Positions 4,886 to 34,489 of a stretch of 34,489 nucleotides of DNA are shown one piece after another (position 1 is the stretch's first letter; each line of letters begins with the position of its first letter). The position numbers and the translations under genes are program-made. Source of the stretch: a virus. Taxonomy: Duplodnaviria; Heunggongvirae; Uroviricota; Caudoviricetes. Under the pieces are notes generated by a model, which was not told the origin of the DNA, ran no database searches, and saw only the letters and a program-made list of their open reading frames with translations. Location: IMG/VR virus record IMGVR_UViG_2671180921_000023, positions 1-34,489 of that record, one strand, 5' to 3'.

Positions 4886-7800
4886 TATTCGTGTCAGCTT
4901 TGGCGCAATTGACCGGCTGACACGCCCGACCGAAAACGCCCGCCGTCAGGTGGGCGCTCTCACTGAATCCCTTCAGAAGACGCAGGACAACATACAGGCG
5001 CTCGACAGGCAGTCGAAGGTGTTCGAACGTGCCGCCGGAAATCTCAGTAAATACCGCGAACAGATTGCCCGTGCGGAGCAGAGGCTCGCCGGGCTGCGAA
5101 AGGCAGAGCAGAACGGTAACATCCTCTCCGAAAAGCAGCGCGAAACGCTGGCGGCACTCTCCGCGCGGCTTGAGCGCCTGAACGAGCTGCGCACGCGCGA
5201 ACGCGAAAAACTTCAGGCGGCGGCAGGGGAAATGCGCAAACACGGCATTCTGCTTTCCGGCAGCAGCCGCACCATTGAAAGTGCCGTTCGCCGTACACAG
5301 CAGTACAACGAGCTGCTCGAGCGCGAACGGCAGGCACTGGCTCGCGTGACGCAGGCACAGAGCCGCTATGAGGCCGCGAAGGCACAGGCGGAAAAACTGC
5401 GCAACACAGGGGCTGTGGCGATGGCGGCGGGTACAGGCGGCCTGTATGCGGCGCAGCGTATGATGGCTCCGGCGATGGAGTCCGAACAGCACGGTGCGGT
5501 CATCGCAGCCGGTTCGGGGGAAGGCGCACAGGATGGCGCACGTTACACCCACATTATTCGTAACATACAGGCTGACGGTCTCGCTGATTTTGCCGGTGCT
5601 GCGGAGGCTGTGAGTGCGGTACGCAGTACGCTCGGCGCGCTGGGCGACACCGGCGACCGGGAACTGGAGCGCATCAGCCGTCGTGCGCTGGATATGCGGA
5701 CCGTCTTTGGTGTTGATGTGCCACAGGGCATTCAGGCCGCTGCCATCATGATGAAGAACGGGCTGGCTGCCAGCAGTGACGAGGCCACCAACCTGATGAC
5801 GGCAGGGATGCAGCGCATGTCCGCTGAAATGCGCGATGAACTGCCGGAAATTCTGCACGAGTATTCCACCCACTTCCGCAACATGGGTTTCACCGGCAGA
5901 GAGACAATGAGCCTGCTGGTTGAGATGGCAAAGCAGGGCAAGTTTGCGCTGGATAAAACCGGCGATGCCGTGAAGGAGTTCAGCATCCGGGGTTCGGATA
6001 TGTCGAAATCCAGTGTCTCAGCGTATGAGACACTCGGCCTGAATGCCGAACGGGTGTCTGCTGCCATTGCACAGGGAGGCAGCACCGCACGTCAGGCGAT
6101 GCAGGTGACCGCCCGTGCACTGCTGGCCATCCGTGACCCGGCAGAGCGGGCGAACACGGCCATTGCGCTGTTCGGCACACCCGTTGAAGACCTCTCCGTT
6201 GACCAGATCCCGCAGTTCTTAAAGGCGCTGGCCGATGTCCGTGACAACCTGGGTGATGTCAGCGGCGTGGCAGAGCGCATGGGGCAGACGCTGCGCGGTA
6301 ATCTTTCCGGCGATGTTCAGGCGCTGAGTGGCGCGTTCTCAGGGCTACGCACGGACATCTTCGGTACTGTGACCGAGGATTTGCGCGGGCTGGTTCAGAC
6401 GGTGAGCGCGTGGGTGACCCGGATGCGCGAATGGGTCGGAGAGCATCAGGCGCTGGTCAGAGTCCTGGTGCTGACCGGCGGGAGTGTTCTGGCGCTGTCT
6501 TCCACGTTCGGTGCGCTGTCACTGACGCTCGGGCTGATTGCGGGGCCGCTGGCAAAACTGCAACTGGGACTGGGGTTGCTGACGGGGGGCGGCGGCATTG
6601 GTGGGGCTGTCCGGCTTGTGTCCGCGCTGGCGCTGCGCCTGACGGGATTGTCTTCCCTGTGGGGACTGGTCACAGGGGCGGTGTCGGTACTGGGGGGCGC
6701 ACTGGGGGCGCTGTTCAGTCCGGTCGGGCTGATTGTTGCCGCCCTGGTGGGCGGCGCGGTTCTGGTGTGGAAATACTGGGATCAGATCAGCGCGTTTTTT
6801 TCCGGCTTTTTTGCCGGAGTGTGGGAGGCGCTGCAACCGCTGCGGGAAGCCTTTGCATCGCTGGCTCCGGTGTTCGGGCTGATTGGCGACGGCATCAAAG
6901 CCGTGTGGGAGTGGTTCACCCGCCTGCTTGAACCTGCGAACGCCTCAAAAGAGACGCTCGACAAATGCACCAGAGCCGGGGAGTTGTTCGGCAAAACGCT
7001 GGGGTGGGTCATTCAGAACATTGTGCTGGGGCCGCTGACGCTGCTCCTTGAAGGCCTCGGTACTGTGCTGAAATGGCTGGGTGTCATTCCTGACGGCATC
7101 AAAAATGCACAGAAGGAGACGCAAAAACTTCAGGAGAGCGCCGCACAGCAAAACGAACAAAAAGCGCCGGTTGCGTGGGAGTGGGATCCCGCACAGAAAA
7201 AAATGGTGCAGAAGTCGTGGGCGTGGTCATCAGATGCAGCGGAAAACAACGGCGACAATAAACCCGCAATACCTGCCCCTGCTGTTCCCGGAGAGGTGAA
7301 GGGAACGGCAGGCAATCCGGTCGGCAATCCCGGCAGCAAATCCCCGCTGGATGAGGCATGGTTCCGGCAGGGGATACAGAAAACCGCCAGCAATACAGGC
7401 GGGCTTCTTGAGGAAACAAAAAAACGTACTGGCCCCGGCGATATTGTTTTCAAAAATCTGCCCGGACCCGAAATCATTCACGGCGAGTGGAAAGCGCCGC
7501 AGGTTATCCGGACAGTGCAGGCGGTATCGGCGGGCGGAGGACTGGCGGATGTGCTGACAACGCTCTGGCAGAAACTCACCGGAAGACAGACTGTTTCGCC
7601 CGTTCCGGCAGTGAATGTGCCAGCACCGGTGGTGAATGTGGCGCGTCAGGTGTCCGCACTGCCGCAGCCGCGTAACGTGACGGCAGGCATGACAGGTGCG
7701 GTAATGGCTTCCGCTCCCGTCGCGGAGGCTATCCGGCCCCCGTTGCGACCGGAACCGGCCGGAAGGGAAGCTGCGCCACAGCCGCAGGCGGCTGCGTTTT

Positions 7801-22664: not shown

Positions 22665-23204
22665 CTAATAATCTTCTGTCTCCTGCCACGAGACTTTTCC
22701 GCCTGCCTTTATGATGGCTCGCTCAACATCCCGTTCGTATCGCAAAGGCTGGAATACGCCGTTAATGAAATACTCCTTTGGGTCCGGGATCGATACGGTA
22801 AATTTGTCATTCTCTGGTTTTGGTATTGGTGAGACTGGATGCTCGTTTTTGGCAAGTTTTTTTATGACTCCCTCGTATTTTTCTTTTGTACATTGCATCG
22901 CCTCTTCAAAAGAAAGCGCTTTGTTACGCATTAACACGGCGTACTTTAGTGCATCCTGTGCTTTCTGGAATTTAAGTGCATAGTCAGTGGCGATTTTTTC
23001 CAGTTCAGCAGCCCGCCTTCGAAGCCCTTCAATCTCACCATTGCGGGCGATGAGGTTGCAGCACATTCTTTCATTCTCATCCAGCAACGCCAGCACAACC
23101 GATGGTGTCACCTGTTCATGGAAAATATCCGCATCATATCCCCAGTCATCATGTATTGCCTGCTCTGCCGCTTCACGCAGTGCCTGATAGTCAATCTTGC
23201 TCAT
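22665..23204 (-). CDS. Hypothetical phage protein, possibly Ead/Ea22-like
   Basis: 179 aa; N-terminus MSKIDYQALREAAE and motif PSVVLALLDE. Last gene of the accessory operon; 4-nt overlap with the upstream gene. Confidence 0.45.
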   Translation of the reverse strand: MSKIDYQALREAAEQAIHDDWGYDADIFHEQVTPSVVLALLDENERMCCNLIARNGEIEGLRRRAAELEKIATDYALKFQKAQDALKYAVLMRNKALSFEEAMQCTKEKYEGVIKKLAKNEHPVSPIPKPENDKFTVSIPDPKEYFINGVFQPLRYERDVERAIIKAGGKVSWQETEDY

Positions 23205-23725
23205 TGGATGACTCCTTTGTGTTGCGTCAGCTCTTCCTGTGCCTGCATCATGCGATTGACCTGAACGCGTGTGCGTCGAACGGAAAAAACAAACAGATTC
23301 AAAAGGCGGCGCATCTCTTTGTCCTCATGTCGCGCATGACGGATAAAGGCAAGTCGGTAGAACTCGGATTCGGCAGCGCGTTGAATCAACGACAGAGCAA
23401 AGTGAAGTGCGGGTCTGGTGCATTTTGCACATCTGGCGGCAAGCTCTGGCATCAATCTCTTAACGAAGGTGTTTTGCACCGCTTTGTTGAGACGCACCTG
23501 CATCCGAAGCGCAAAGGCCAGCGAACGCATGAGCCGGATTGCGTCGGGCAACGGCAGATAGATCATGCTGGCGGTTTTGGGTAGCGGATGAATCATTTTT
23601 ACGGAGATGCGATTGCGCAGCGTTCGAAACATCGTGCTCCCGACAACAGACTCCACGGAGATGGGGCAGGGAGCCATACCAACCCGCAACGCGTTCGTCA
23701 TGAACAGATATTCATCTTTTTTCAT
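23201..23725 (-). CDS. Hypothetical protein (174 aa), accessory operon
   Basis: Start chosen at ATG 23725 (MKKDEYLF) with AAGGA RBS. A GTG start at 23788 would abut the upstream stop. No recognisable domain. Confidence 0.4.
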   Translation of the reverse strand: MKKDEYLFMTNALRVGMAPCPISVESVVGSTMFRTLRNRISVKMIHPLPKTASMIYLPLPDAIRLMRSLAFALRMQVRLNKAVQNTFVKRLMPELAARCAKCTRPALHFALSLIQRAAESEFYRLAFIRHARHEDKEMRRLLNLFVFSVRRTRVQVNRMMQAQEELTQHKGVIQ

Positions 23726-23788
23726 CGTGTTTTCCTTAGTGCGGGGCGACAGTGCCCCGATAAAATTAAAAGCCGTCAAACTCGTCAC

Positions 23789-24121
23789 TCATCTTCCTAC
23801 TCCCTGCGTTCCTTGTTTTTCGCGGATAACTTCGTTGCACAGTTCCACACACTCGTCGCAGATGAAAACGTCGTCCCCGGCAATTAACTGTTTGACGGCG
23901 TGCTGTGGTTTCTTGCAGAAGCTGCAATAAAGCGTTTGCCTGACAGATACGGATGATGTGTAGGATGTCAGCCTCGCGATGTCGTTCTTGCGGCGCAACA
24001 TCACACGGCAGCACTCAACCAGTTTCTCCGGGGCGATTTCTTCCTCTGTGGCGAGCGCCTCCAGTCGTTCGAGTATGTGGAAGGCTTTTTCCTCGGTAAT
24101 TGCAGAATGCGATGTGGTCAT
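23789..24121 (-). CDS. Small protein with a C-terminal ClpX-type C4 zinc-binding domain
   Basis: C-terminal [39 protein letters not shown] closely resembles the ClpX N-terminal zinc-binding domain. Start at ATG 24121 with AAGGAG RBS. Confidence 0.65.
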
Positions 24122-24132
24122 CTCTTTCTCCT

Positions 24133-24333
24133 TCAAAGTTCAGTGTGCTGACAGAGGTGTCCTTTGCGACAGACCAGGACGCTTCCCTTACTTGAGTCGG
24201 TGATTGTCACCGTGCCGTCATCGCACTGGACAACGATGACGGTGTTGCTCTTTTCCGTTGCGCAGTTCGGCGTGGTTGAATGCGCCAACGGAATGAAAAA
24301 CAGCGAAAAAAGTAATGTCAGTCTTTTCATCAT
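24133..24333 (-). CDS. Small secreted cysteine-containing protein (66 aa) with N-terminal signal peptide
   Basis: [19 protein letters not shown] signal-like N-terminus; short Cys-containing mature part; overlaps the start of the ClpX-ZBD gene. Confidence 0.4.
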
Positions 24334-24407: not shown

Positions 24408-24719
24408 TTATTCGGGGAATAAGGCCCTGATGTTTGCGGCCATCTGGCTGGGTGTCTGCACCTCTGGCGCAACCTGTACTTTGGGGCTTTCCGCCCTGAG
24501 CTGTGTCACGGGTAACGGCTCATCGTCAGCCCATGCAGCCAGCCGGTAAGCCTCTGCCGGATTCGTCTTCAGAAGTGCCAGCCCGGCCAGAAAAGCCACA
24601 CGTTGCCCGCTTTTGCGGGCTTCCGGTGTAAGGCTGTCCAGCCAGGCACATGCTTCGTTTTCGTTCTTGACTGCGGCTGGCTTCAGATAGAAACTTATCC
24701 GCCTGGTTGATGTTGTCAT
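24408..24719 (-). CDS. parR: ParR/StbB-like partition adaptor
   Basis: 103 aa, immediately downstream of parM; N-terminal RISFYLKPAAVKNE ... AFLAGLALL resembles plasmid R1 ParR. Confidence 0.65.
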   Translation of the reverse strand: MTTSTRRISFYLKPAAVKNENEACAWLDSLTPEARKSGQRVAFLAGLALLKTNPAEAYRLAAWADDEPLPVTQLRAESPKVQVAPEVQTPSQMAANIRALFPE

Positions 24720-24723
24720 TGGT

Positions 24724-25683
24724 TCACTCCCTGTTCATGTCATGGAGTCCATTAACCAGGGCAAACTGTGGCTCCGGTGTTGTGTGAATGTTTGCGTTGA
24801 GGCCGTAAGCGTCATGTACCGCCGGAGCCACAATCTCCGCCCCTCCACCGACAATCATCACCCGACCGTATCCCGAAAAGCCCGCCAGTGCGCGGATCAC
24901 GCGTTGTTTCAGTGTTTCTTCCTTTTCACGAATAACCGCCATCAGGCTGGCGTAATGCGCGTCATTGTGGATGTGCTGGCGCAGCCAGGCTTCATCGTGG
25001 CGATGTTCGATAATGGTATTGGCGATGTGGTGACTGGTACGCATACCGTTAGTGGCCATCACCGACAGTACGGCATCGGTCATCAGTGAAACGCCTACGT
25101 GTGGATCGCAAAATACCTGGCTGATGCCTGCCAGTTGCCCCTGAACCTTTGCCACATCCAGCGTGGTTCCGCCTAAATCCACAATCAGCAGGGATTCAAA
25201 CGGACTCATGTCAGCCAGTGCTTTAAAACCAGCCGGAATGGATTCAGGCATAACCCGTACGTTACGGATAGTGAATGCTTTTCCGTTCTGGTACGCCACC
25301 GGGCGCATGACGTTTGCTTTTTTGCGGTTGATGTTGGCCATGTCCGGCTGTGCGTTTGTGTCGAAATACTCGCTCAGTGGCAGGGTGACAACCACATCCA
25401 CTTCCTGTGGTGTGATGCCTGATTTGACCAGCGCGTGATGAATGGCAATGACATTCACATCGCTGTACTGGTATTGCGTGTCGGTCGTCTGGACAAAGCG
25501 ATCGCTGACCGGATCAAAACCATAGCGCACGCCATCAAGCATGTAGTTCGCGGGCTGCGTGCCACCGAACGGCGCAGACCATTCCGACTTGAAGCTGTTC
25601 GGGCTGATGGCGTTGCGGCGTTCGCCGTTCTCAGTCCATGCCAGCTTGATGTTGGTGGAGCCGTCATCGATACAAATTTTCAT
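24724..25683 (-). CDS. parM: ParM/StbA actin-like segregation ATPase
   Basis: 319 aa with ParM phosphate-binding motifs: IDDGSTNIKL, FTIRNVRVMPESIPAG, LLIVDLGGTTLDV, VMIVGGGAE. Co-linear with R1 ParM. Confidence 0.85.
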   Translation of the reverse strand: MKICIDDGSTNIKLAWTENGERRNAISPNSFKSEWSAPFGGTQPANYMLDGVRYGFDPVSDRFVQTTDTQYQYSDVNVIAIHHALVKSGITPQEVDVVVTLPLSEYFDTNAQPDMANINRKKANVMRPVAYQNGKAFTIRNVRVMPESIPAGFKALADMSPFESLLIVDLGGTTLDVAKVQGQLAGISQVFCDPHVGVSLMTDAVLSVMATNGMRTSHHIANTIIEHRHDEAWLRQHIHNDAHYASLMAVIREKEETLKQRVIRALAGFSGYGRVMIVGGGAEIVAPAVHDAYGLNANIHTTPEPQFALVNGLHDMNRE

Positions 25684-25714
25684 GTCGCTTTTCCTTATGT
25701 TGATTAATTAATCG

Positions 25715-25827
25715 TTTACGGGATTCTGAAATCCCGTTTTTGCCTGTTTTGTGCGCGCTTCATATATCGCTGCGCGTTTTTTGCTCATTTACGGGATTCG
25801 TGAGTCCCGTTTCTGTCTGTTTTTTGT
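25715..25827. repeat. Two 40-bp direct repeats, each a hairpin plus T-run; candidate parC centromere/promoter or origin-associated element
   Basis: Copy 1 at 25715-25753 (intergenic, upstream of parM); copy 2 at 25788-25827 (inside the last codons of gene A). Each has an ACGGGATT-type 8-bp stem. Confidence 0.5.
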
Positions 25828-28600
25828 TTCCGCTGGTCAGGCCACCCCGCAGCAGGTCTGCTTTGCGGCTGGCGCGTTCAGTGGTTTCACTGATTCTCTG
25901 TGCGTGCTCTGCGTCGCGGATGGCGCGCAGCATGTCAGAAAGCACGGTAACGGGTGTTTTCATGGTGTTCTGGTCCTGCTGAAGTGTGGATGCCAGGCGT
26001 GCGGCGGCTTCAGGGTCTGATGCCCCCAGCTGTGCCAGATAGCTGGCGACCGGGTTATGGCGGATCTCCGTGCTGCTTACGCCATGATTACGGCTCAGGC
26101 GCTGCCAGAGCTGCGTGATTCGGCTGTCCGGGCGGGTATCCGGTTTGCGTACAATTTCAAATCCCTGCGGTGCAATGATGCTGCCGTCAACGTACAGACT
26201 GCCGCCCCGTAACAGGTGCTGCATCTGTTGTTCACCGATATGCAGGCCGAGAGATTCAGCAGACTCCCGCCATTCTTTAGCGAGTAATTCGTGGTTATCA
26301 GGCAAAGGCCGCTGCTGTTTGCGGCTCTGTGTCCAGCTCTGCATTTCATCACTGCTGTTTTTTGCCTGTTTGTCACGAAGCGAACGCATCAGCGCCCGGC
26401 GTTCGTGCCGTTTCAGTGAGCGCATCCATTCGTTCACTTCAACGCCGTCAGGGAGCTGCGGCCACGGTGCTGGCCGTTCTTCCGGCTGTTCTGTCCCGTT
26501 GTTGTCCGTTTCCTGTACACGGGGACAGTTATTGCCACGAGTCCAAGGGGCGGCAGGGCCGCCCTGAAGGTCAAAACCATTTTCGCGGGAGCTGTCTTCC
26601 GCTTCCGGTTTACGTCTTACCAGCTTCCAGTTATCCGGGTGCGTGCACACACGGGAGGATTCCCCGATGAGTGGTGACCAGATCCCGTAAATCTGTACAC
26701 TCTGTTCGCCGTAATCGTTCAGCTCATCTGCGAGGTCGTAGGCGGTGCGAATCAGGTAGTCTTTACGTGGAACAAGTACTCCGCCCTGTTTCTCAATGTA
26801 GGTGGCAAAACATCCGGCATCAGCGGCAGCAAGAACCGCATCCATTGCGTCATCCTTCAGCCGTTGTGGGCCTTCCGGGTTGCGTGCCATCTGGCTGGCA
26901 AGGCGGCGCAGTTCACGCCATACCTGACGGGAGGGGATACCAAAGAACTGGAACTGGCGGACCCGGTGAAGGCGCGCCCAGCCGATGGCGCGCTCCACGC
27001 TCTCGGCCATTGATTTTCCGGTTTCGTGGTCAACGCGTGGCTTGCCCGTTTTCGGGTCGATGCCATCCACGGCGCGGCTATCCAGGTTCTTTCCGATGTA
27101 GGTGGCGATGTAGCTGGTTGGCGTGCCTTTCGAACCGTCGACGTACTCTGCCTTAAAGCGCGGAGTAATATCATTGCCCAGCTCGTGGCGGTCTTCCTGA
27201 ATGGCAATATCGCAGACGTGGGACACGATGGTTTCAATCTCGTCCGGATGTGCAAAGACCATCATATGCCAGTGCACCGTGCCGTCATGGTGAGGCTCCA
27301 CCGTGCGGATGCCATACCAGCGCAGACCGTCGCGGTTCAGTTTTTTGCGGACCGCCGCAAAAAACGTGTTAACCAGGTAATCGCTGGAGTCGCGCATGGT
27401 GGCTCCGTTCCATTTGGGGTTCGGATGACCGTTCTCCGTTGTTGCGTGGTATTTTGACGGGCAGGTGACAGTCAGAAACACCGCTCTGTCGCCACGGGCT
27501 TCGGCCAGAAGTTCCAGCCCCTTCATGGTGGCCATCATTTCTGCCTTACGGTGAACCGGGTTACTTACTCCCGCGTAATACACTGTCTCGAGATCAATCG
27601 TGAACCCGTCTTCATTTTCCAGCATGAAACTTTTCAGGAAATCGCGTGTTTTCTCGCGCTGTGCGCGAAACTCGCTTAACGCGTCCTGGCTCAGATAGGG
27701 TGATGTTTTTCTGGAAACCAGACAGGCGGCGCGGAGTTGTTCTTCTCTCCACTCGCAACGTAACAGCCACAGTTTGCGTTTCCACCATTCCGCACAGGTC
27801 AGGCGAAGGATTGCGCCCGGCAGCAGCTCCGTGTCCGGTTCGTTCCTCCGGTCTTTGTCTGTTGTCAGTGCGTCATAATGTGGAGGCATGGCGTGCAGGT
27901 GTAACGCCATGCGGGCCAGCATCTGATACGCCTTCAGCGTTACATCCATGGTCAGTTCGCCATCAGTAGCGCCAAAGCCATCGCAGAGTTTTTCGAAGGT
28001 GCTGCTGAACATCGCCGCCGTCATGGTGGCCAGCGTCTGTATCTGGTGTTTGTTGAGCTGCGGCAGGTAAAGCAAATCGTCCAGGCGTTCGCGTCCGGCA
28101 AGGGAGCGATAACCCGGTGTCAGCCAGCGGTGATCGGTGCGGTCCAGACGTTCGAATATTTTGCGCAGGGTTCCGCGCGCGTAGCGTTCAGCCTGCCAGC
28201 TCTTTTTGCCTTTCTGGCGATCGGCTTCCTGTTTTTTGCGCAGGAAAGAGAGGTGGCGGCTCAGAGGTTCACGCAGATAAACGGGAAGCACCTTCAGTGT
28301 GGCAAAAGCACGGGCCACCGGGTCTTGTTCTGTTGCCTGACGCTTGCTGATGATGCTTTGTGCCAGCTTTTCACGCTGTCCGGCTTCCTCAAGGGATGCC
28401 ATGAGTTTTTTACCCATGGCGGATTGTGCGAAAAAGGCTTCCTCCTTCGCTTCCTGTTCTTCCTGGGCCTTTTTGTCTGCCTCAAGGTAGTAACGGATGG
28501 CGCGTTGCAGGTCGGTTTCAGTTTCCTGCCTGCACTCCGTAAATCTGGCCGGATCAATGGCTGGCCGCGGTTCATTCCAGCTCCATGCAAACTCACTCAT
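25760..28600 (-). CDS. A: Replication initiation protein gpA (rolling-circle HUH endonuclease)
   Basis: About 946 aa, P2 gpA-like with HUH motif (VHWHMMVF). Start at ATG 28600 overlaps the upstream stop (ATGA coupling). Confidence 0.85.
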   Translation of the reverse strand: MSEFAWSWNEPRPAIDPARFTECRQETETDLQRAIRYYLEADKKAQEEQEAKEEAFFAQSAMGKKLMASLEEAGQREKLAQSIISKRQATEQDPVARAFATLKVLPVYLREPLSRHLSFLRKKQEADRQKGKKSWQAERYARGTLRKIFERLDRTDHRWLTPGYRSLAGRERLDDLLYLPQLNKHQIQTLATMTAAMFSSTFEKLCDGFGATDGELTMDVTLKAYQMLARMALHLHAMPPHYDALTTDKDRRNEPDTELLPGAILRLTCAEWWKRKLWLLRCEWREEQLRAACLVSRKTSPYLSQDALSEFRAQREKTRDFLKSFMLENEDGFTIDLETVYYAGVSNPVHRKAEMMATMKGLELLAEARGDRAVFLTVTCPSKYHATTENGHPNPKWNGATMRDSSDYLVNTFFAAVRKKLNRDGLRWYGIRTVEPHHDGTVHWHMMVFAHPDEIETIVSHVCDIAIQEDRHELGNDITPRFKAEYVDGSKGTPTSYIATYIGKNLDSRAVDGIDPKTGKPRVDHETGKSMAESVERAIGWARLHRVRQFQFFGIPSRQVWRELRRLASQMARNPEGPQRLKDDAMDAVLAAADAGCFATYIEKQGGVLVPRKDYLIRTAYDLADELNDYGEQSVQIYGIWSPLIGESSRVCTHPDNWKLVRRKPEAEDSSRENGFDLQGGPAAPWTRGNNCPRVQETDNNGTEQPEERPAPWPQLPDGVEVNEWMRSLKRHERRALMRSLRDKQAKNSSDEMQSWTQSRKQQRPLPDNHELLAKEWRESAESLGLHIGEQQMQHLLRGGSLYVDGSIIAPQGFEIVRKPDTRPDSRITQLWQRLSRNHGVSSTEIRHNPVASYLAQLGASDPEAAARLASTLQQDQNTMKTPVTVLSDMLRAIRDAEHAQRISETTERASRKADLLRGGLTSGNKKQTETGLTNPVNEQKTRSDI

Positions 28601-29016
28601 GGCTGGTATCCCGTCACGCGCTGCCACTCCTGCGAGAAGAGGGTGGAAAGGCGGTTAAACTCAGCGGTGTATTCACTCAGCGAGGCACACCCGCCAGCAG
28701 TGTGATGCGCCAGCATTGCCGCAAATACGGAGGCCGGGGAGTCGTAATACGCCAGCAGTGATTCGCCGTGTGGTGTCAGGCAGTGCAACGCCAGCCCGTG
28801 TGGTGTCAGGCAGTGCAACGCCAGCCCGTGTGGTGTGAAGTCCACGCGGTAGCAGTCGTCTACTGTGAAATAAAGGGTGTCCGCATTCTCCGGTTTTGTG
28901 GTGCGTGCTCTGTTGTCACGACCGCGGATGTAGAGATCAAATAATCCCTGAAGAACGGGAGCCAGACGGGTGTCCTGTGTGCGCACCCATCTTGTGAAGT
29001 CATGAGCGTCAATCAT
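28597..29016 (-). CDS. Hypothetical early protein (139 aa) with an internal in-frame tandem duplication
   Basis: Protein repeat TPHGLALHCL x2 plus a partial third, encoded by a perfect 30-bp tandem repeat; translationally coupled to A. Confidence 0.5.
   Translation of the reverse strand: MIDAHDFTRWVRTQDTRLAPVLQGLFDLYIRGRDNRARTTKPENADTLYFTVDDCYRVDFTPHGLALHCLTPHGLALHCLTPHGESLLAYYDSPASVFAAMLAHHTAGGCASLSEYTAEFNRLSTLFSQEWQRVTGYQP
28767..28836. repeat. Perfect 30-bp tandem direct repeat (2 full copies plus a 10-bp partial) inside a CDS
   Basis: cgtgtggtgtcaggcagtgcaacgccagcc repeated at 28767-28796 and 28797-28826, then cgtgtggtgt. Confidence 0.9.
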
Positions 29017-32884: not shown

Positions 32885-32950
32885 CGGTTCACCAGGCATT
32901 TTTTTCCCAGAGCTGTGATCAAGATGATGTTTTCATTGGAGGGCTTCCTT

Positions 32951-33946
32951 ATGTCGATTAAGAAGCTCGCTAATGGCAAATTTTGTGTGGACGTGCGGCC
33001 TGCTGGATCGGAAGGAAAGAGATTCAGACGGCGATTTGATACTCGTGGTGAGGCTGTTTTGTATGAGCGTCATGTATTGCAGCATTACCACGACAAAGAC
33101 TGGGTTGATAAGCCAACAGAACGGCGCTCGCTGAGGGAGTTGCTGGATTGTTGGTGGCTATACCACGGGAAAAATCATCCTTACGGTGCGATGGAGCGAG
33201 TGCGTATTTCTGCGGTCATTAGTGATCTTGAAAGTATTAATGTTACACGCAGTGACCAACTTACTCGTAAGAACATAATTAATTATCGCTTATTGCTGCT
33301 TAACCGCGGAATAAAACAATCCACGGTTAATCGTTATTGTGCAATGATGAGTGGTTTCTTCACAAAACTAATTGACGCAGAGGAATATTCTGGGGCTAAT
33401 CCGTTTCATGATGTAAAAAAACTTAATATCAAACAGCCTGAAATGGCTTATTTGTATCATGAAGATATTCCACGATTACTGGAGTTGTTATCTGGTGATG
33501 AATTAAAAGCCGTCTTGTTGTGTCTGGCAACAGGTGGAAGATGGAGTGAGGTTGCAAATATCAAGGGGGAGCATGTTATTAGCGGCAAAGTCATTTTTAT
33601 GGAAACCAAAAATGGGAAGCGTCGCGTTATACCTATATCGTCAGAACTGGAGTGCATGATTAAAACAAAGGCCACTGGTCGTTTAATTTATCCAAGTTAT
33701 GCAGCTGTCAGAGCTGCTATCAGAAAGGTGAGGCCCGATCTTCCTGAAGGGCAGTCGATACATGTTTTACGGCATACCTTTGCCACTCACTTCATGATTA
33801 ATGGTGGGAATATCATCACTTTGCAGAGAATACTTGGACATAGCACTATTCAGCAGACGATGACTTATGCCCATTTTGCACCGGATTATCTACAGGATGC
33901 TGTGCGCTTTAATCCTGTGGCTGAGTTGTCCAGATATTGCCCATAA
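32951..33946 (+). CDS. int: Tyrosine integrase (P2 Int-like)
   Basis: Start at ATG 32951 (MSIKKLANGKF) with GGAGGG RBS; catalytic R ... HVLRHTF ... GHSTIQQTMTYAH signature. Confidence 0.9.
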   Translation: MSIKKLANGKFCVDVRPAGSEGKRFRRRFDTRGEAVLYERHVLQHYHDKDWVDKPTERRSLRELLDCWWLYHGKNHPYGAMERVRISAVISDLESINVTRSDQLTRKNIINYRLLLLNRGIKQSTVNRYCAMMSGFFTKLIDAEEYSGANPFHDVKKLNIKQPEMAYLYHEDIPRLLELLSGDELKAVLLCLATGGRWSEVANIKGEHVISGKVIFMETKNGKRRVIPISSELECMIKTKATGRLIYPSYAAVRAAIRKVRPDLPEGQSIHVLRHTFATHFMINGGNIITLQRILGHSTIQQTMTYAHFAPDYLQDAVRFNPVAELSRYCP

Positions 33947-34008
33947 AATAGGACTAAATAAGCCGACTTAAGACTATGTGTATTGATGTAACTAATTGAT
34001 ATATCAAA

Positions 34009-34060
34009 GGGAGGCCAGTGTGCTCGGCCTCCTTCATGTCACCTTCGGGTGGCGTTGTTT
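34009..34060 (+). terminator. Two hairpins after int (the second followed by a T-rich run); terminator and/or att-proximal structure
   Basis: gggaggcc-loop-ggcctcc at 34009-34032; caccttcgggtg at 34040-34051 followed by gcgttgtttta. Confidence 0.4.
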
Positions 34061-34237
34061 TATGCGATGTATCTCGCGATTTTTTTTTGTAACTTTTCCA
34101 TCTTTTGCTTTTCTCTCCGAGCCGCTTTCCATATCTGCAATCGCATAAAAAACTCTGCTGGCGTTCACAAATGTGCAGGGGTAAAACGTTTCCTGTAGCA
34201 CCGTGAGTTATACTTTGTATAACTTAAGGAGGTGCAG

Positions 34238-34489
34238 ATGCGTATTACCATAAAAAGATGGGGGAACAGTGCAGGTATGGTCATTCCCAATATCGTAATG
34301 AAAGAACTTAACTTACAGCCGGGGCAGAGCGTGGAAGCGCAGGTGAGCAACAACCAACTGATTCTGACACCCATCTCCAGGCGCTACTCGCTTGATGAAC
34401 TGCTGGCACAGTGTGACATGAACGCCGCGGAACTTAGCGAGCAGGATGTCTGGGGTAAATCCACCCCTGCGGGTGACGAAATATGGTAA
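34238..34489 (+). CDS. chpS: ChpS (ChpBI) antitoxin of the chpB-chpS toxin-antitoxin pair
   Basis: 83 aa MRITIKRWGNSAGMVIPNIVMKELNLQPGQ ... GDEIW, complete; the stop TAA is the last 3 nt of the window. The ATGGTAA ending suggests an overlapping chpB start just beyond the window. Confidence 0.85.
   Translation: MRITIKRWGNSAGMVIPNIVMKELNLQPGQSVEAQVSNNQLILTPISRRYSLDELLAQCDMNAAELSEQDVWGKSTPAGDEIW

Follow-up and report, generated by a model that had tools for sequence, protein, structure and literature searches.

The window analysed here, a stretch of 34,489 nucleotides, holds a P88-like (Xuanwuvirus, Peduoviridae) prophage of E. coli integrated next to chpSB, in which parM and parR form a fixed backbone module, shared with related P2-like temperate phages of enterobacteria, and not variable cargo. 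We consider it probable on balance that the module is a bona fide type II partition cassette, kept by selection, that acts on a transient extrachromosomal circle of the phage. The presence of parMR in P2-like prophages is itself a known and annotated feature: RefSeq phage records (P88, phiSM and others) already name these genes as ParM or partition protein, and a putative plasmid partitioning system was reported in roughly one in four P2-like phages of E. coli (Rousset et al. 2022; PMC9122126). Newly shown here are the fixed place of the module in the P88-like backbone, the strong purifying selection on parMR, and the gpA-parM-parR order in divergent enterobacterial prophages, with the spacing of two similar dyads retained in those of Plesiomonas and Hafnia. 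A literature search found no functional study of the parMR cassette in any P2-like phage.

Identity and constraint of ParM and ParR

The gene parM (24724..25683, minus strand) encodes an actin-like partition ATPase of 319 aa, and parR (24408..24719, minus strand), which starts 4 nt past the parM stop, encodes a ribbon-helix-helix centromere-binding adaptor of the StbB family (103 aa). ParM matches both of its Pfam domains along their whole length, with scores that exceed the gathering cutoffs by a wide margin (StbA_N, E = 6.9e-82; C-terminal domain, E = 2.7e-65), as well as PHROG 691 "partition protein" (2.6e-86) and the structures of R1 ParM (PDB 1MWK and others, E = 1e-91). It is 47% identical with R1 ParM over 314 residues, that is over the full length, and keeps all the nucleotide-binding motifs (IDDGSTNIKL, MPESIPAG, DLGGTTLD and GGGAE). 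ParR matches Pfam Plasmid_stab_B (E = 1.4e-23) and PHROG 2515 "partition protein" (2.7e-52), and a profile of the window ParR with its phage and plasmid relatives matches the pB171 ParR structure 2JD3 (E = 7.6e-16). The preliminary description, which had recognized an actin-like ATPase with the ParM phosphate-binding motifs and a ParR-like adaptor, is thus borne out by profile searches that place both proteins inside the ParM and ParR/StbB families.

All 85 copies of ParM are full length, at 319 aa, and dN/dS among 70 distinct alleles is 0.07, indicating strong purifying selection. The window allele is slightly divergent: its ParM is at most about 95% identical to relatives in the phage database and IMG/VR, and the best cluster found for it shows 97% identity. 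In ParR, residues 1-65, the N-terminal DNA-binding part, are conserved (dN/dS 0.11-0.16), residues 66-90 form a hypervariable linker (0.69, near neutral), and the C-terminal part with the motif NIRALFPE is again conserved (0.06-0.2). The beta-strand TRRISFYLKP is essentially invariant, and so are the arms of the dyads described below. Moreover, the window ParR is of the same Pfam family as the R1 and pCTX-M3 ParRs, and its C-terminal N-x3-LFP motif recurs in the pCTX-M3 ParR and in divergent phage ParRs. The pattern of conservation, with constraint on the DNA-binding part and on the presumed ParM-binding peptide, is that of a working partition adaptor.

Candidate parC repeats upstream of parM

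Two 42-nt direct repeats are found upstream of parM, where the preliminary description expected parC, with 34 of the 42 positions identical and 73 bp from start to start. For comparison, when the 300 nt ahead of parM were shuffled 300 times with dinucleotides preserved, the highest 42-nt match had a mean of 23.0 (sd 1.1) and a maximum of 28. Each repeat contains a dyad CGGGA-N8-TCCCG that occurs nowhere else in the window. The proximal repeat (25712..25753) has its dyad core ACGGGATTCTGAAATCCCGT at 25718-25737, and the distal repeat (25785..25826), with its core at 25791-25810, sits within the last ~22 codons of gene A. Comparison of 54 distinct upstream sequences shows the dyad arms to be conserved. 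At one locus (L066) the upstream gene is different and homology resumes exactly at the distal repeat, which suggests that this repeat marks the left boundary of the module. Similarly, Plesiomonas and Hafnia P2-like phages, whose ParM is only ~62% identical, carry a pair of GGGA-N8-10-CCC dyads in the corresponding place, with a spacing of 72-73 bp. The sites lie ~30-140 bp upstream of parM, and both position and spacing are kept where the intervening sequence is unrelated.

The order of repeats, parM and parR is the same as in parMRC of plasmid R1/NR1 (the stbAB/parA locus) and in parMR of the IncL/M plasmid pCTX-M3, and ahead of its parM the latter likewise has two blocks of repeats, spaced by 73 bp. 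However, R1 parC consists of ten 11-bp direct iterons in two sets of five and pCTX-M3 has 10-bp periodic repeats, whereas the window has two dyad-symmetric candidate ParR sites, the distal one overlapping the 3' end of the upstream gene, a further difference from both plasmids. We therefore take the two repeats as a candidate parC; because there are only two such sites against the repeat arrays of R1 and pCTX-M3, centromere function is not assured.

A weak candidate sigma-70 promoter for parMR (25703..25730, minus strand) was found by a relaxed scan with 8 of 12 matches and is tentative: its -35 TTCAGA (25730-25725), overlapped by the proximal repeat, is followed by a 16-nt spacer and a -10 ATTAAT (25708-25703), and a ribosome-binding site, AAGGA, lies at 25696-25692. 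The Hafnia phage shows an analogous arrangement with the -35 within the proximal dyad. A stricter scan returned no promoter.

The repeats could instead be transcriptional or RNA elements, such as antisense-strand terminators or stem-loops of the A-parM mRNA, with the real ParR sites elsewhere or absent. Scored on the plus strand, each dyad resembles a terminator hairpin with a T-run after it, and RNA of the A-parM junction, in which the two dyads can pair together, has a more stable fold than its shuffled controls (z = -4.1); the small number of sites, unlike the iteron arrays of R1, would also fit such elements. However, no rightward gene needing termination was identified just upstream on the plus strand, both flanking genes being on the minus strand, and dyad symmetry fits dimeric ribbon-helix-helix proteins. 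The spacing kept between lineages and the inclusion of the distal repeat within the module boundary at L066 also argue against this explanation. We consider it improbable as a replacement for the candidate parC, and an RNA-level role for the dyads may exist.

A fixed module of an integrated prophage

The preliminary description placed the cassette directly downstream of replication gene A and inside an integrated P2-like prophage, and both points stand. Gene A (25760..28627, minus strand; Pfam Phage_GPA, 1.9e-129) encodes the P2-family rolling-circle replication endonuclease and lies directly upstream of parM. A predicted integrase ORF (32915-33946) adjoins a 3' flank of E. coli chpS/chpB, so the copy in the window is integrated. 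It is also evident that the cassette is not atypical of integrating P2-family phages, as had been supposed: it is present in 1303 of the 5426 complete E. coli genomes (24%). Among related loci, gene A is immediately upstream of parM in 83 of 85, the other two being cut by contig ends. The order gpA-parM-parR-cargo-portal recurs in divergent P2-like prophages from four further genera (Plesiomonas, Hafnia, Serratia and Enterobacter), which suggests that the linkage of gpA with parMR is long-standing. Escherichia phage P88 (NC_026014), Citrobacter phage phiSM (OR565851) and other Xuanwuvirus carry the orthologous cassette at the same position, with 91-94% nucleotide identity to the window from parR through parM into the 3' end of A; P88 and phiSM differ from the window in the cargo downstream of parR and in the slight divergence of the ParM allele, with no difference in kind.

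P2 does carry old and tin between A and cos, as the preliminary description stated (PMC9122126), but its assignment of the cassette to this variable cargo did not hold, the variable slot lying downstream, between parR and cos/portal (22665..24333, minus strand, outside the cassette). From parR to the portal gene the slot ranges from 537 to 2487 bp across related loci. In the window it encodes a secreted, Cys-rich protein of 66 aa, a protein made up of a ClpX zinc finger only, a protein of 195 aa and unknown family, and an Ead/Ea22-like protein; its contents differ in P88 and phiSM. The cassette lies between gpA and gpQ, an interval that in P2-like phages houses old, tin and numerous defence systems (PMC9122126), and a rival idea is that parMR acts against plasmids or competing phages, through partition-mediated incompatibility or another form of exclusion. 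The cassette is, however, invariant within the lineage, PADLOC models match neither ParM nor ParR, and the constraint on ParR fits a working partition adaptor. In a tblastn search of 72,556 PLSDB records the window ParR, too diverged to match any plasmid ParR, found only 7 P88-like copies and no true plasmid ParR; cross-reaction with plasmid centromeres is therefore unlikely, and we regard a defence role as highly improbable.

Rousset et al. (2022; PMC9122126) proposed that the partitioning system might let P2-like phages persist as plasmids, and ParMRC could accordingly support long-term maintenance as a low-copy plasmid prophage instead of integration. The preliminary description likewise suggested that the cassette might stabilize an episomal form, or else have been co-opted for another function. 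The cassette is of plasmid type, its nearest homologues below ~54% identity being on plasmids or ICEs, and one 34,461-bp circular record deposited as a "plasmid" (NZ_CP148288.1) consists of a whole P88-like genome, closed at the int side and free of bacterial DNA. Episomal circles of these phages thus exist, in line with a transient extrachromosomal form as well. Nevertheless, cassette places in the 5426 complete E. coli genomes number 1449 chromosomal against 2 plasmid, which argues against a habitual plasmid lifestyle. The 7 PLSDB records with this ParR comprise a circle of phage size, a linear fragment ridden with IS elements and, for the remainder, very large records. Replicon typing of the circular record found no plasmid-type replicon, and the record may be spontaneously induced phage DNA. 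Together with the predicted integrase and the integrated state of the window copy, these results make a facultative plasmid life unlikely. A tblastn search of 50,697 phage records with ParM returned only 14 P88-like (Xuanwuvirus) records, the P1-like phage-plasmid D6 and an Acinetobacter phage. D6 has StbA/StbB in the same order, an R1-type ParM (46% identical) followed by ParR, and its record itself mentions similarity to "phage P88 StbA"; D6, however, has a genome of 91 kb and lives as a true plasmid prophage, whereas P88-like phages integrate.

Gene A and the probable role of the cassette

Rolling-circle gene A is the only replication gene recognized near the cassette, a further point against a plasmid life; the carrier is an integrating phage that replicates by rolling circle, whereas R1 and pCTX-M3 are low-copy theta plasmids. 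Lytic rolling-circle replication gives many copies, and multicopy DNA barely needs active partition, a counterpoint to a partition role. ParMR might serve lytic growth rather than inheritance, by positioning or activating replicating phage DNA or gpA. The tight and apparently ancient linkage to an HUH rolling-circle initiator and the distal repeat within the 3' end of gene A are consistent with this, and the HUH relaxase TraI is bound and stimulated by R1 ParM/ParR (PMC4949242). Because no strong independent promoter was found, co-transcription of parMR with the early replication operon is plausible. A precedent is AlpAC/alpS of CGP3 in Corynebacterium glutamicum, likewise an integrated prophage with an actin-like protein and a DNA-binding adaptor; AlpAC links circular phage DNA to actin-like filaments (Donovan et al. 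2015), repeats ahead of the operon are bound by the adaptor that it encodes, and the system has excised circular phage DNA as its target and is needed for efficient replication (PMC4446434). However, AlpC is a distant actin-like protein of a Gram-positive host, and the relationship is too remote for AlpAC function to be transferred to the window cassette. Neither P2 nor 186 needs a ParMR to replicate well, and an interaction of ParM/ParR with gpA is purely hypothetical. A lytic role is a possibility that we hold to be rather doubtful, and it and partition of a transient circle are not mutually exclusive.

The most likely role of parMR, as judged from these comparisons, is partition or positioning of a transient extrachromosomal phage circle; such a circle is the most likely substrate because P88-like phages are almost always integrated and keep their integrase. 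ParR dimers would bind the two dyads just upstream of parM through their ribbon-helix-helix domains, filaments of ATP-bound ParM would be captured by the conserved C-terminal ParR peptide, and filament growth between ParR-bound copies would push or position the circles, either between infection and integration or, once the phage has excised, during replication of the DNA by gpA. Precedents for such a role are AlpAC of CGP3 and srpMRC of the SXT/R391 ICEs. The latter is a type II-like partition system on a normally integrated element, and there too an HUH enzyme replicates the excised circle by the rolling-circle mode. The kinship of SrpM and SrpR with R1 ParMR is only distant, whereas the window ParM is a close R1-type homologue, and the srpMRC host is an ICE, whereas the present cassette belongs to a phage. 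srpMRC was shown to reduce element loss, stabilizing the excised, relaxase-replicated form (Carraro et al. 2015; PMC4489591), and the phage cassette would similarly reduce the loss of unintegrated or excised phage at cell division.

The ParM and ParR proteins

The 319-aa ORF parM (24724–25683, minus strand) starts 76 bp after gene A (25760–28627, minus strand; Pfam Phage_GPA, 1.9e-129), which encodes gpA, the P2-family rolling-circle initiator. The preliminary description took its product for an actin-like ATPase of a type II partition cassette, and profile searches place it in the ParM family. Both ParM domains in Pfam were matched full length and above the curated thresholds, StbA_N (PF06406) at residues 1–157 with 273.5 bits (cut-off 24.6; E = 6.9e-82) and the C-terminal domain PF21523 at residues 159–316 with 219.7 bits (cut-off 27.4; E = 2.7e-65). 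The protein also matches PHROG 691 ("partition protein") and, in a PDB search, the structure of R1 ParM (1MWK, E = 1e-91), with which it shares 47% identity over 314 residues. In this alignment the nucleotide-binding motifs IDDGSTNIKL (phosphate 1, DDGSTN), MPESIPAG, DLGGTTLD (phosphate 2) and GGGAE (adenosine) are identical. Because the ParM-like matches in NCBIfam were all sub-threshold, the identification rests on Pfam, PHROG and PDB. To follow the cassette among its relatives, we used a set of 85 related loci drawn from three annotated public records, three GTDB species-genome loci, 80 IMG/VR loci and the window; phages P88 and phiSM were dropped from it by the orientation filter. ParM is 319 aa long in all 85 loci, and dN/dS among 70 alleles is 0.07 (pairwise Nei–Gojobori). 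Judged by its sequence, ParM is an intact actin-like type II partition ATPase with predicted filament-forming activity.

The 103-aa ORF parR (24408–24719, minus strand) starts 4 nt after the parM stop codon, directly downstream and in one operon, an arrangement kept in all related loci. Its product matches Plasmid_stab_B (StbB/ParR, PF10784; 82.9 bits, cut-off 25, E = 1.4e-23) and PHROG 2515. A search of the PDB with the single sequence gave no match and a profile was needed: the one built from the window ParR and six phage and plasmid relatives matches pB171 ParR (2JD3) over its full length (E = 7.6e-16). The identification of the second gene as parR is thus borne out as well. Pairwise Nei–Gojobori estimates of dN/dS are 0.11–0.16 for residues 1–65, 0.69 for the hypervariable, near-neutral linker and 0.06–0.2 for the last 13 residues, which are under purifying selection. 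The extreme C-terminus of R1 ParR binds ParM (PDB 4A62). A C-terminal motif, N-I-R/Q-x-L/F-F-P, is kept in both ParR allele classes, and its reduced form N-x3-LFP, after the linker, is common to divergent phage ParRs and the ParR of plasmid pCTX-M3. The layout read from these patterns is that expected of a ParR, in which a flexible linker joins an RHH DNA-binding domain to a putative ParM-binding tail.

The two ParR allele classes (seen in loci L007–L086) differ mainly in the helix residues and the linker, and the beta-strand TRRISFYLKP is invariant across alleles. At the DNA level, roughly half of the E. coli genomes share with the window parR no more than its first ~18 codons, and up to three copies are present in some genomes. 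This pattern may be the mark of recombination, or of incompatibility groups among P88-like prophages that share a host.

Candidate ParR sites upstream of parM

Repeat elements had been noted where a parC centromere would sit, and two 42-nt direct repeats (25712–25753 and 25785–25826) are indeed found there, 73 bp apart and identical at 34 of 42 positions; the best 42-nt match in shuffled controls was at most 28/42. Each repeat holds one CGGGA-N8-TCCCG dyad, which occurs nowhere else in the window, and the distal repeat is contained in the final ~22 codons of gene A. Tandem Repeats Finder reported no array near parM, the repeats being dispersed rather than tandem. At 28766–28825, just upstream of gene A and inside an ORF at 28597–29016, there is a perfect 30-bp tandem duplication (CCGTGTGGTGTCAGGCAGTGCAACGCCAGC, twice).

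The arms of the dyads hardly change over 54 distinct upstream sequences, and the 8-nt centres are variable. In one IMG/VR locus (L066, IMGVR_UViG_2547132279_000014) another gene precedes parM and homology resumes exactly at the distal repeat, which marks the boundary of the module. The Plesiomonas and Hafnia phages carry two GGGA-N8-10-CCC dyads in the same place, 72–73 bp apart, in surrounding sequence that is unrelated. In the Serratia/Enterobacter type, the two dyads are replaced by a single long inverted repeat with GGGAAC...ATAGAAAAAT as its core, and ParR has a different beta-strand, NRKISFYLKP. Phylogenetic footprinting is therefore in favour of the dyads as candidate ParR sites, although it is not proof. 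A test for covariation between ParR alleles and repeats had no power, the DNA-reading beta-strand and the dyad arms both being invariant. Whereas R1 parC consists of 2×5 direct iterons, the candidate centromere here has only two sites, and these are palindromic.

Locus L066 shows two further peculiarities (variant at 5459–5905). Its gene A ends early and is separated from parM by an additional Cys-rich ORF of zinc-ribbon-like type, the last ~20 codons of which are those of A and contain the distal repeat. Its dyads have ACAGGA in place of ACGGGA, with the identical change in both copies.

In type II loci the par promoter lies within parC, where ParR represses it. Here the interval from A to parM yielded no sigma-70 promoter in a strict consensus scan, and a relaxed scan gave one weak candidate (TTCAGA-16 nt-ATTAAT, 25730–25703, 8/12 matches) with its −35 element inside the proximal dyad; the arrangement in the Hafnia phage is analogous. 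Transcription of parMR could come either by read-through from the early replication operon or from a weak promoter under ParR control. Nothing usable on the expression of CP-933T genes was found in the literature searched. The dyads resemble terminator hairpins on the plus strand and are able to pair with each other in RNA, as would suit terminator or RNA elements; we nevertheless consider it unlikely that the repeats are such elements rather than a centromere.

A backbone module of integrated P88-like prophages

The preliminary description placed the cassette directly behind gene A, at the position where P2 holds its old/tin-type cargo between A and cos. The first part stands: in 83 of the 85 related loci parM has gene A as its immediate upstream neighbour, and the remaining two are cut by contig ends. 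That the cassette fills the variable slot is not supported, for it is invariant in the 85 loci, and what varies is the stretch from parR to the portal gene, from 537 to 2487 bp among related loci and in content between P88, phiSM and the window. A fixed cassette beside a varying segment indicates that the old/tin-type slot lies downstream of parR, and that parMR is fixed backbone and not cargo. Neither the cassette nor any of the four ORFs that follow it had a match in a PADLOC scan, which leaves a defence reading without support; neither the variable presence nor the known defence family that mark the old/tin-type anti-phage cargo of the P2 hotspot, between gpA and gpQ, was found for the cassette.

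The slot downstream of parR encodes in the window, on the minus strand, a 66-aa Cys-rich protein whose N-terminus resembles a signal sequence (24133–24333, PHROG 20764) and a 195-aa ORF (23201–23788) that matches nothing in Pfam, NCBIfam, PHROGs or PADLOC. Between them lies a 115-aa protein (23789–24136), present also in P88, that consists of little beyond a ClpX C4 zinc finger (PF06689, 5.2e-18; PHROG 6797) and lacks the AAA+ ATPase. It could be a mimic of, or a competitor for, the ClpX adaptor site.

The corresponding region of P88, Citrobacter phage phiSM and other Xuanwuvirus (Peduoviridae) is 91–94% identical to the window, and records of the P88/phiSM type annotate the pair as "plasmid segregation protein ParM" and "partition protein". 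P88 and phiSM are described as active temperate phages. The window copy is an integrated prophage, as the preliminary description held: the sequence beyond the integrase (32915–33946) is that of the E. coli chpS/chpB locus, found in 5247 of the 5426 complete genomes of this species. The right end of the window (33947–34489) is thus a bacterial toxin-antitoxin locus, beside which the prophage is inserted. The left end (1–950) is still prophage, with Hok/Gef-family and YidD-like morons found in only ~1560 genomes.

DNA of parM-parR occurs in 1303 of the 5426 complete E. coli genomes, at 1449 chromosomal and 2 plasmid places, so that about a quarter of E. coli strains, O157:H7 included, have the cassette in a P2-like prophage. 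With this prevalence and the existing annotation in P88-type records, the claim that such a cassette is atypical of integrating P2-family phages is not upheld. Only seven of the 72,556 plasmids in PLSDB encode this ParR: one 34,461-bp circle, one linear IS-ridden fragment and otherwise very large records. The circle (NZ_CP148288.1, pZ1323PEC0009-2; loci L003 and L090) is a complete P88-like genome recorded as an E. coli plasmid, closed on the int side, between int and the methyltransferase/Hok morons, with no bacterial DNA. The record stands either for a circle produced by induction or for a true episome. The linear IS-ridden fragment, a 26.7-kb "plasmid" of Shigella boydii, was rejected as evidence for an episome. 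A P88-like gpA-parM region with a ParM 92% identical to that of the window was also found in an assembly labelled Vagococcus sp. WN89Y (L005, NZ_JBQPOM010000071.1); its presence in a Gram-positive genus is probably due to contamination or mislabelling of the assembly.

Phage-plasmids such as P1, D6, N15 and SSU5 reside extrachromosomally and have a plasmid-type replicon. Extrachromosomal residence does not characterize the P88-like phages, because the prophage is integrated at chpSB, chromosomal places outnumber plasmid places by 1449:2, and a single phage-sized circle is found among 72,556 plasmids. Nor was a plasmid-type replicon typed on NZ_CP148288.1, and rolling-circle gene A is the only replication gene recognised. 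The idea that P88-like phages live as plasmid prophages is weakened by both the ratio and the absent replicon; a facultative plasmid state keeps a small probability.

Among 50,697 phage records, R1-type ParM was found only in 14 P88-like phages (Xuanwuvirus), in the P1-like phage-plasmid D6 (46% identity) and in an Acinetobacter phage. P2 and 186 appear to lack it, since they are missing among the 18 matching phage records. In a wider protein search, an identity gap separates the P88 group (≥92%) from the next relatives, which are P2-like prophages too, with the order gpA, 0–2 ORFs, parM, parR, cargo, portal; they come from Plesiomonas (ParM identity 63%), Hafnia (62%), Serratia (57%) and Enterobacter (54%). 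At ≤50% identity the homologues sit in Dickeya on an ICE and in Mangrovibacter on an integrated plasmid. A neighbor-joining tree of 107 ParM homologues, computed without support values, groups the P2-like ParMs in two clades beside ParMs of IncL/M-type plasmids. The Dickeya chromosome (CM001975.1, L097) bears its R1-type parM-parR (ParM 48% identical) inside an integrated conjugative element with TraG_N and TraU genes and an integrase, and is another case of an integrating element with type II partition genes.

The ParM/ParR cassette is real but already known. RefSeq has annotations for its genes, "phage P88 StbA" is cited in the record of D6, and both the observation of the cassette and a plasmid-maintenance hypothesis were published in 2022 (Rousset et al., PMC9122126). 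No functional study of a P2-like ParMR cassette was found in the literature searched. This analysis contributes the boundary of the module, candidate parC dyads together with the evidence that they are conserved, the pattern of selection, the occurrence in further genera and an argument against plasmid life as the habitual state.

Proposed partition in an integrating phage

An intact ParM, an intact ParR in which the DNA-binding and tail regions are constrained, conserved paired dyads, a fixed place behind the rolling-circle initiator and the integrated state are shown here, and the following mechanism is proposed. ParR would bind the dyads, and ParM filaments would act on the ParR-bound phage DNA. 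The substrate would be an extrachromosomal circle, present between infection and integration or after excision. Partition of such a circle is supported by two precedents: srpMRC lowers the loss of SXT/R391 ICEs, the excised form of which is replicated by a relaxase (PMC4489591), and AlpAC, which links the circular DNA of CGP3 to actin-like filaments, is required for efficient replication (PMC4446434).

ParM and ParR of R1 bind and stimulate the HUH relaxase TraI (PMC4949242). Like TraI, gpA is an HUH enzyme, of the rolling-circle type, and it is the constant neighbour of the window-type cassette. We tentatively suggest, as a possibility still short of an even chance, that in a large branch of P2-like phages ParMRC is functionally coupled to gpA, its filaments delivering or segregating gpA-replicated circles so that an unintegrated genome survives host division. 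This reading is proposed because the candidate centromere extends into gene A at its 3' end and the two remain linked where ParM has diverged to as little as 54% identity. If true, the coupling would set the efficiency of lysogenisation or permit a carrier or pseudolysogenic state, and it would give type II partition a new role, in an integrating virus.

In the P2-like phages that have it, the cassette is neighboured by defence systems, toxins and other cargo. If the cassette stabilises a transient episomal phase, it would affect how efficiently lysogeny is established and kept, and it would join the ICE and CGP3 systems, as a phage example, among the integrating elements that make use of "plasmid" partition machinery.
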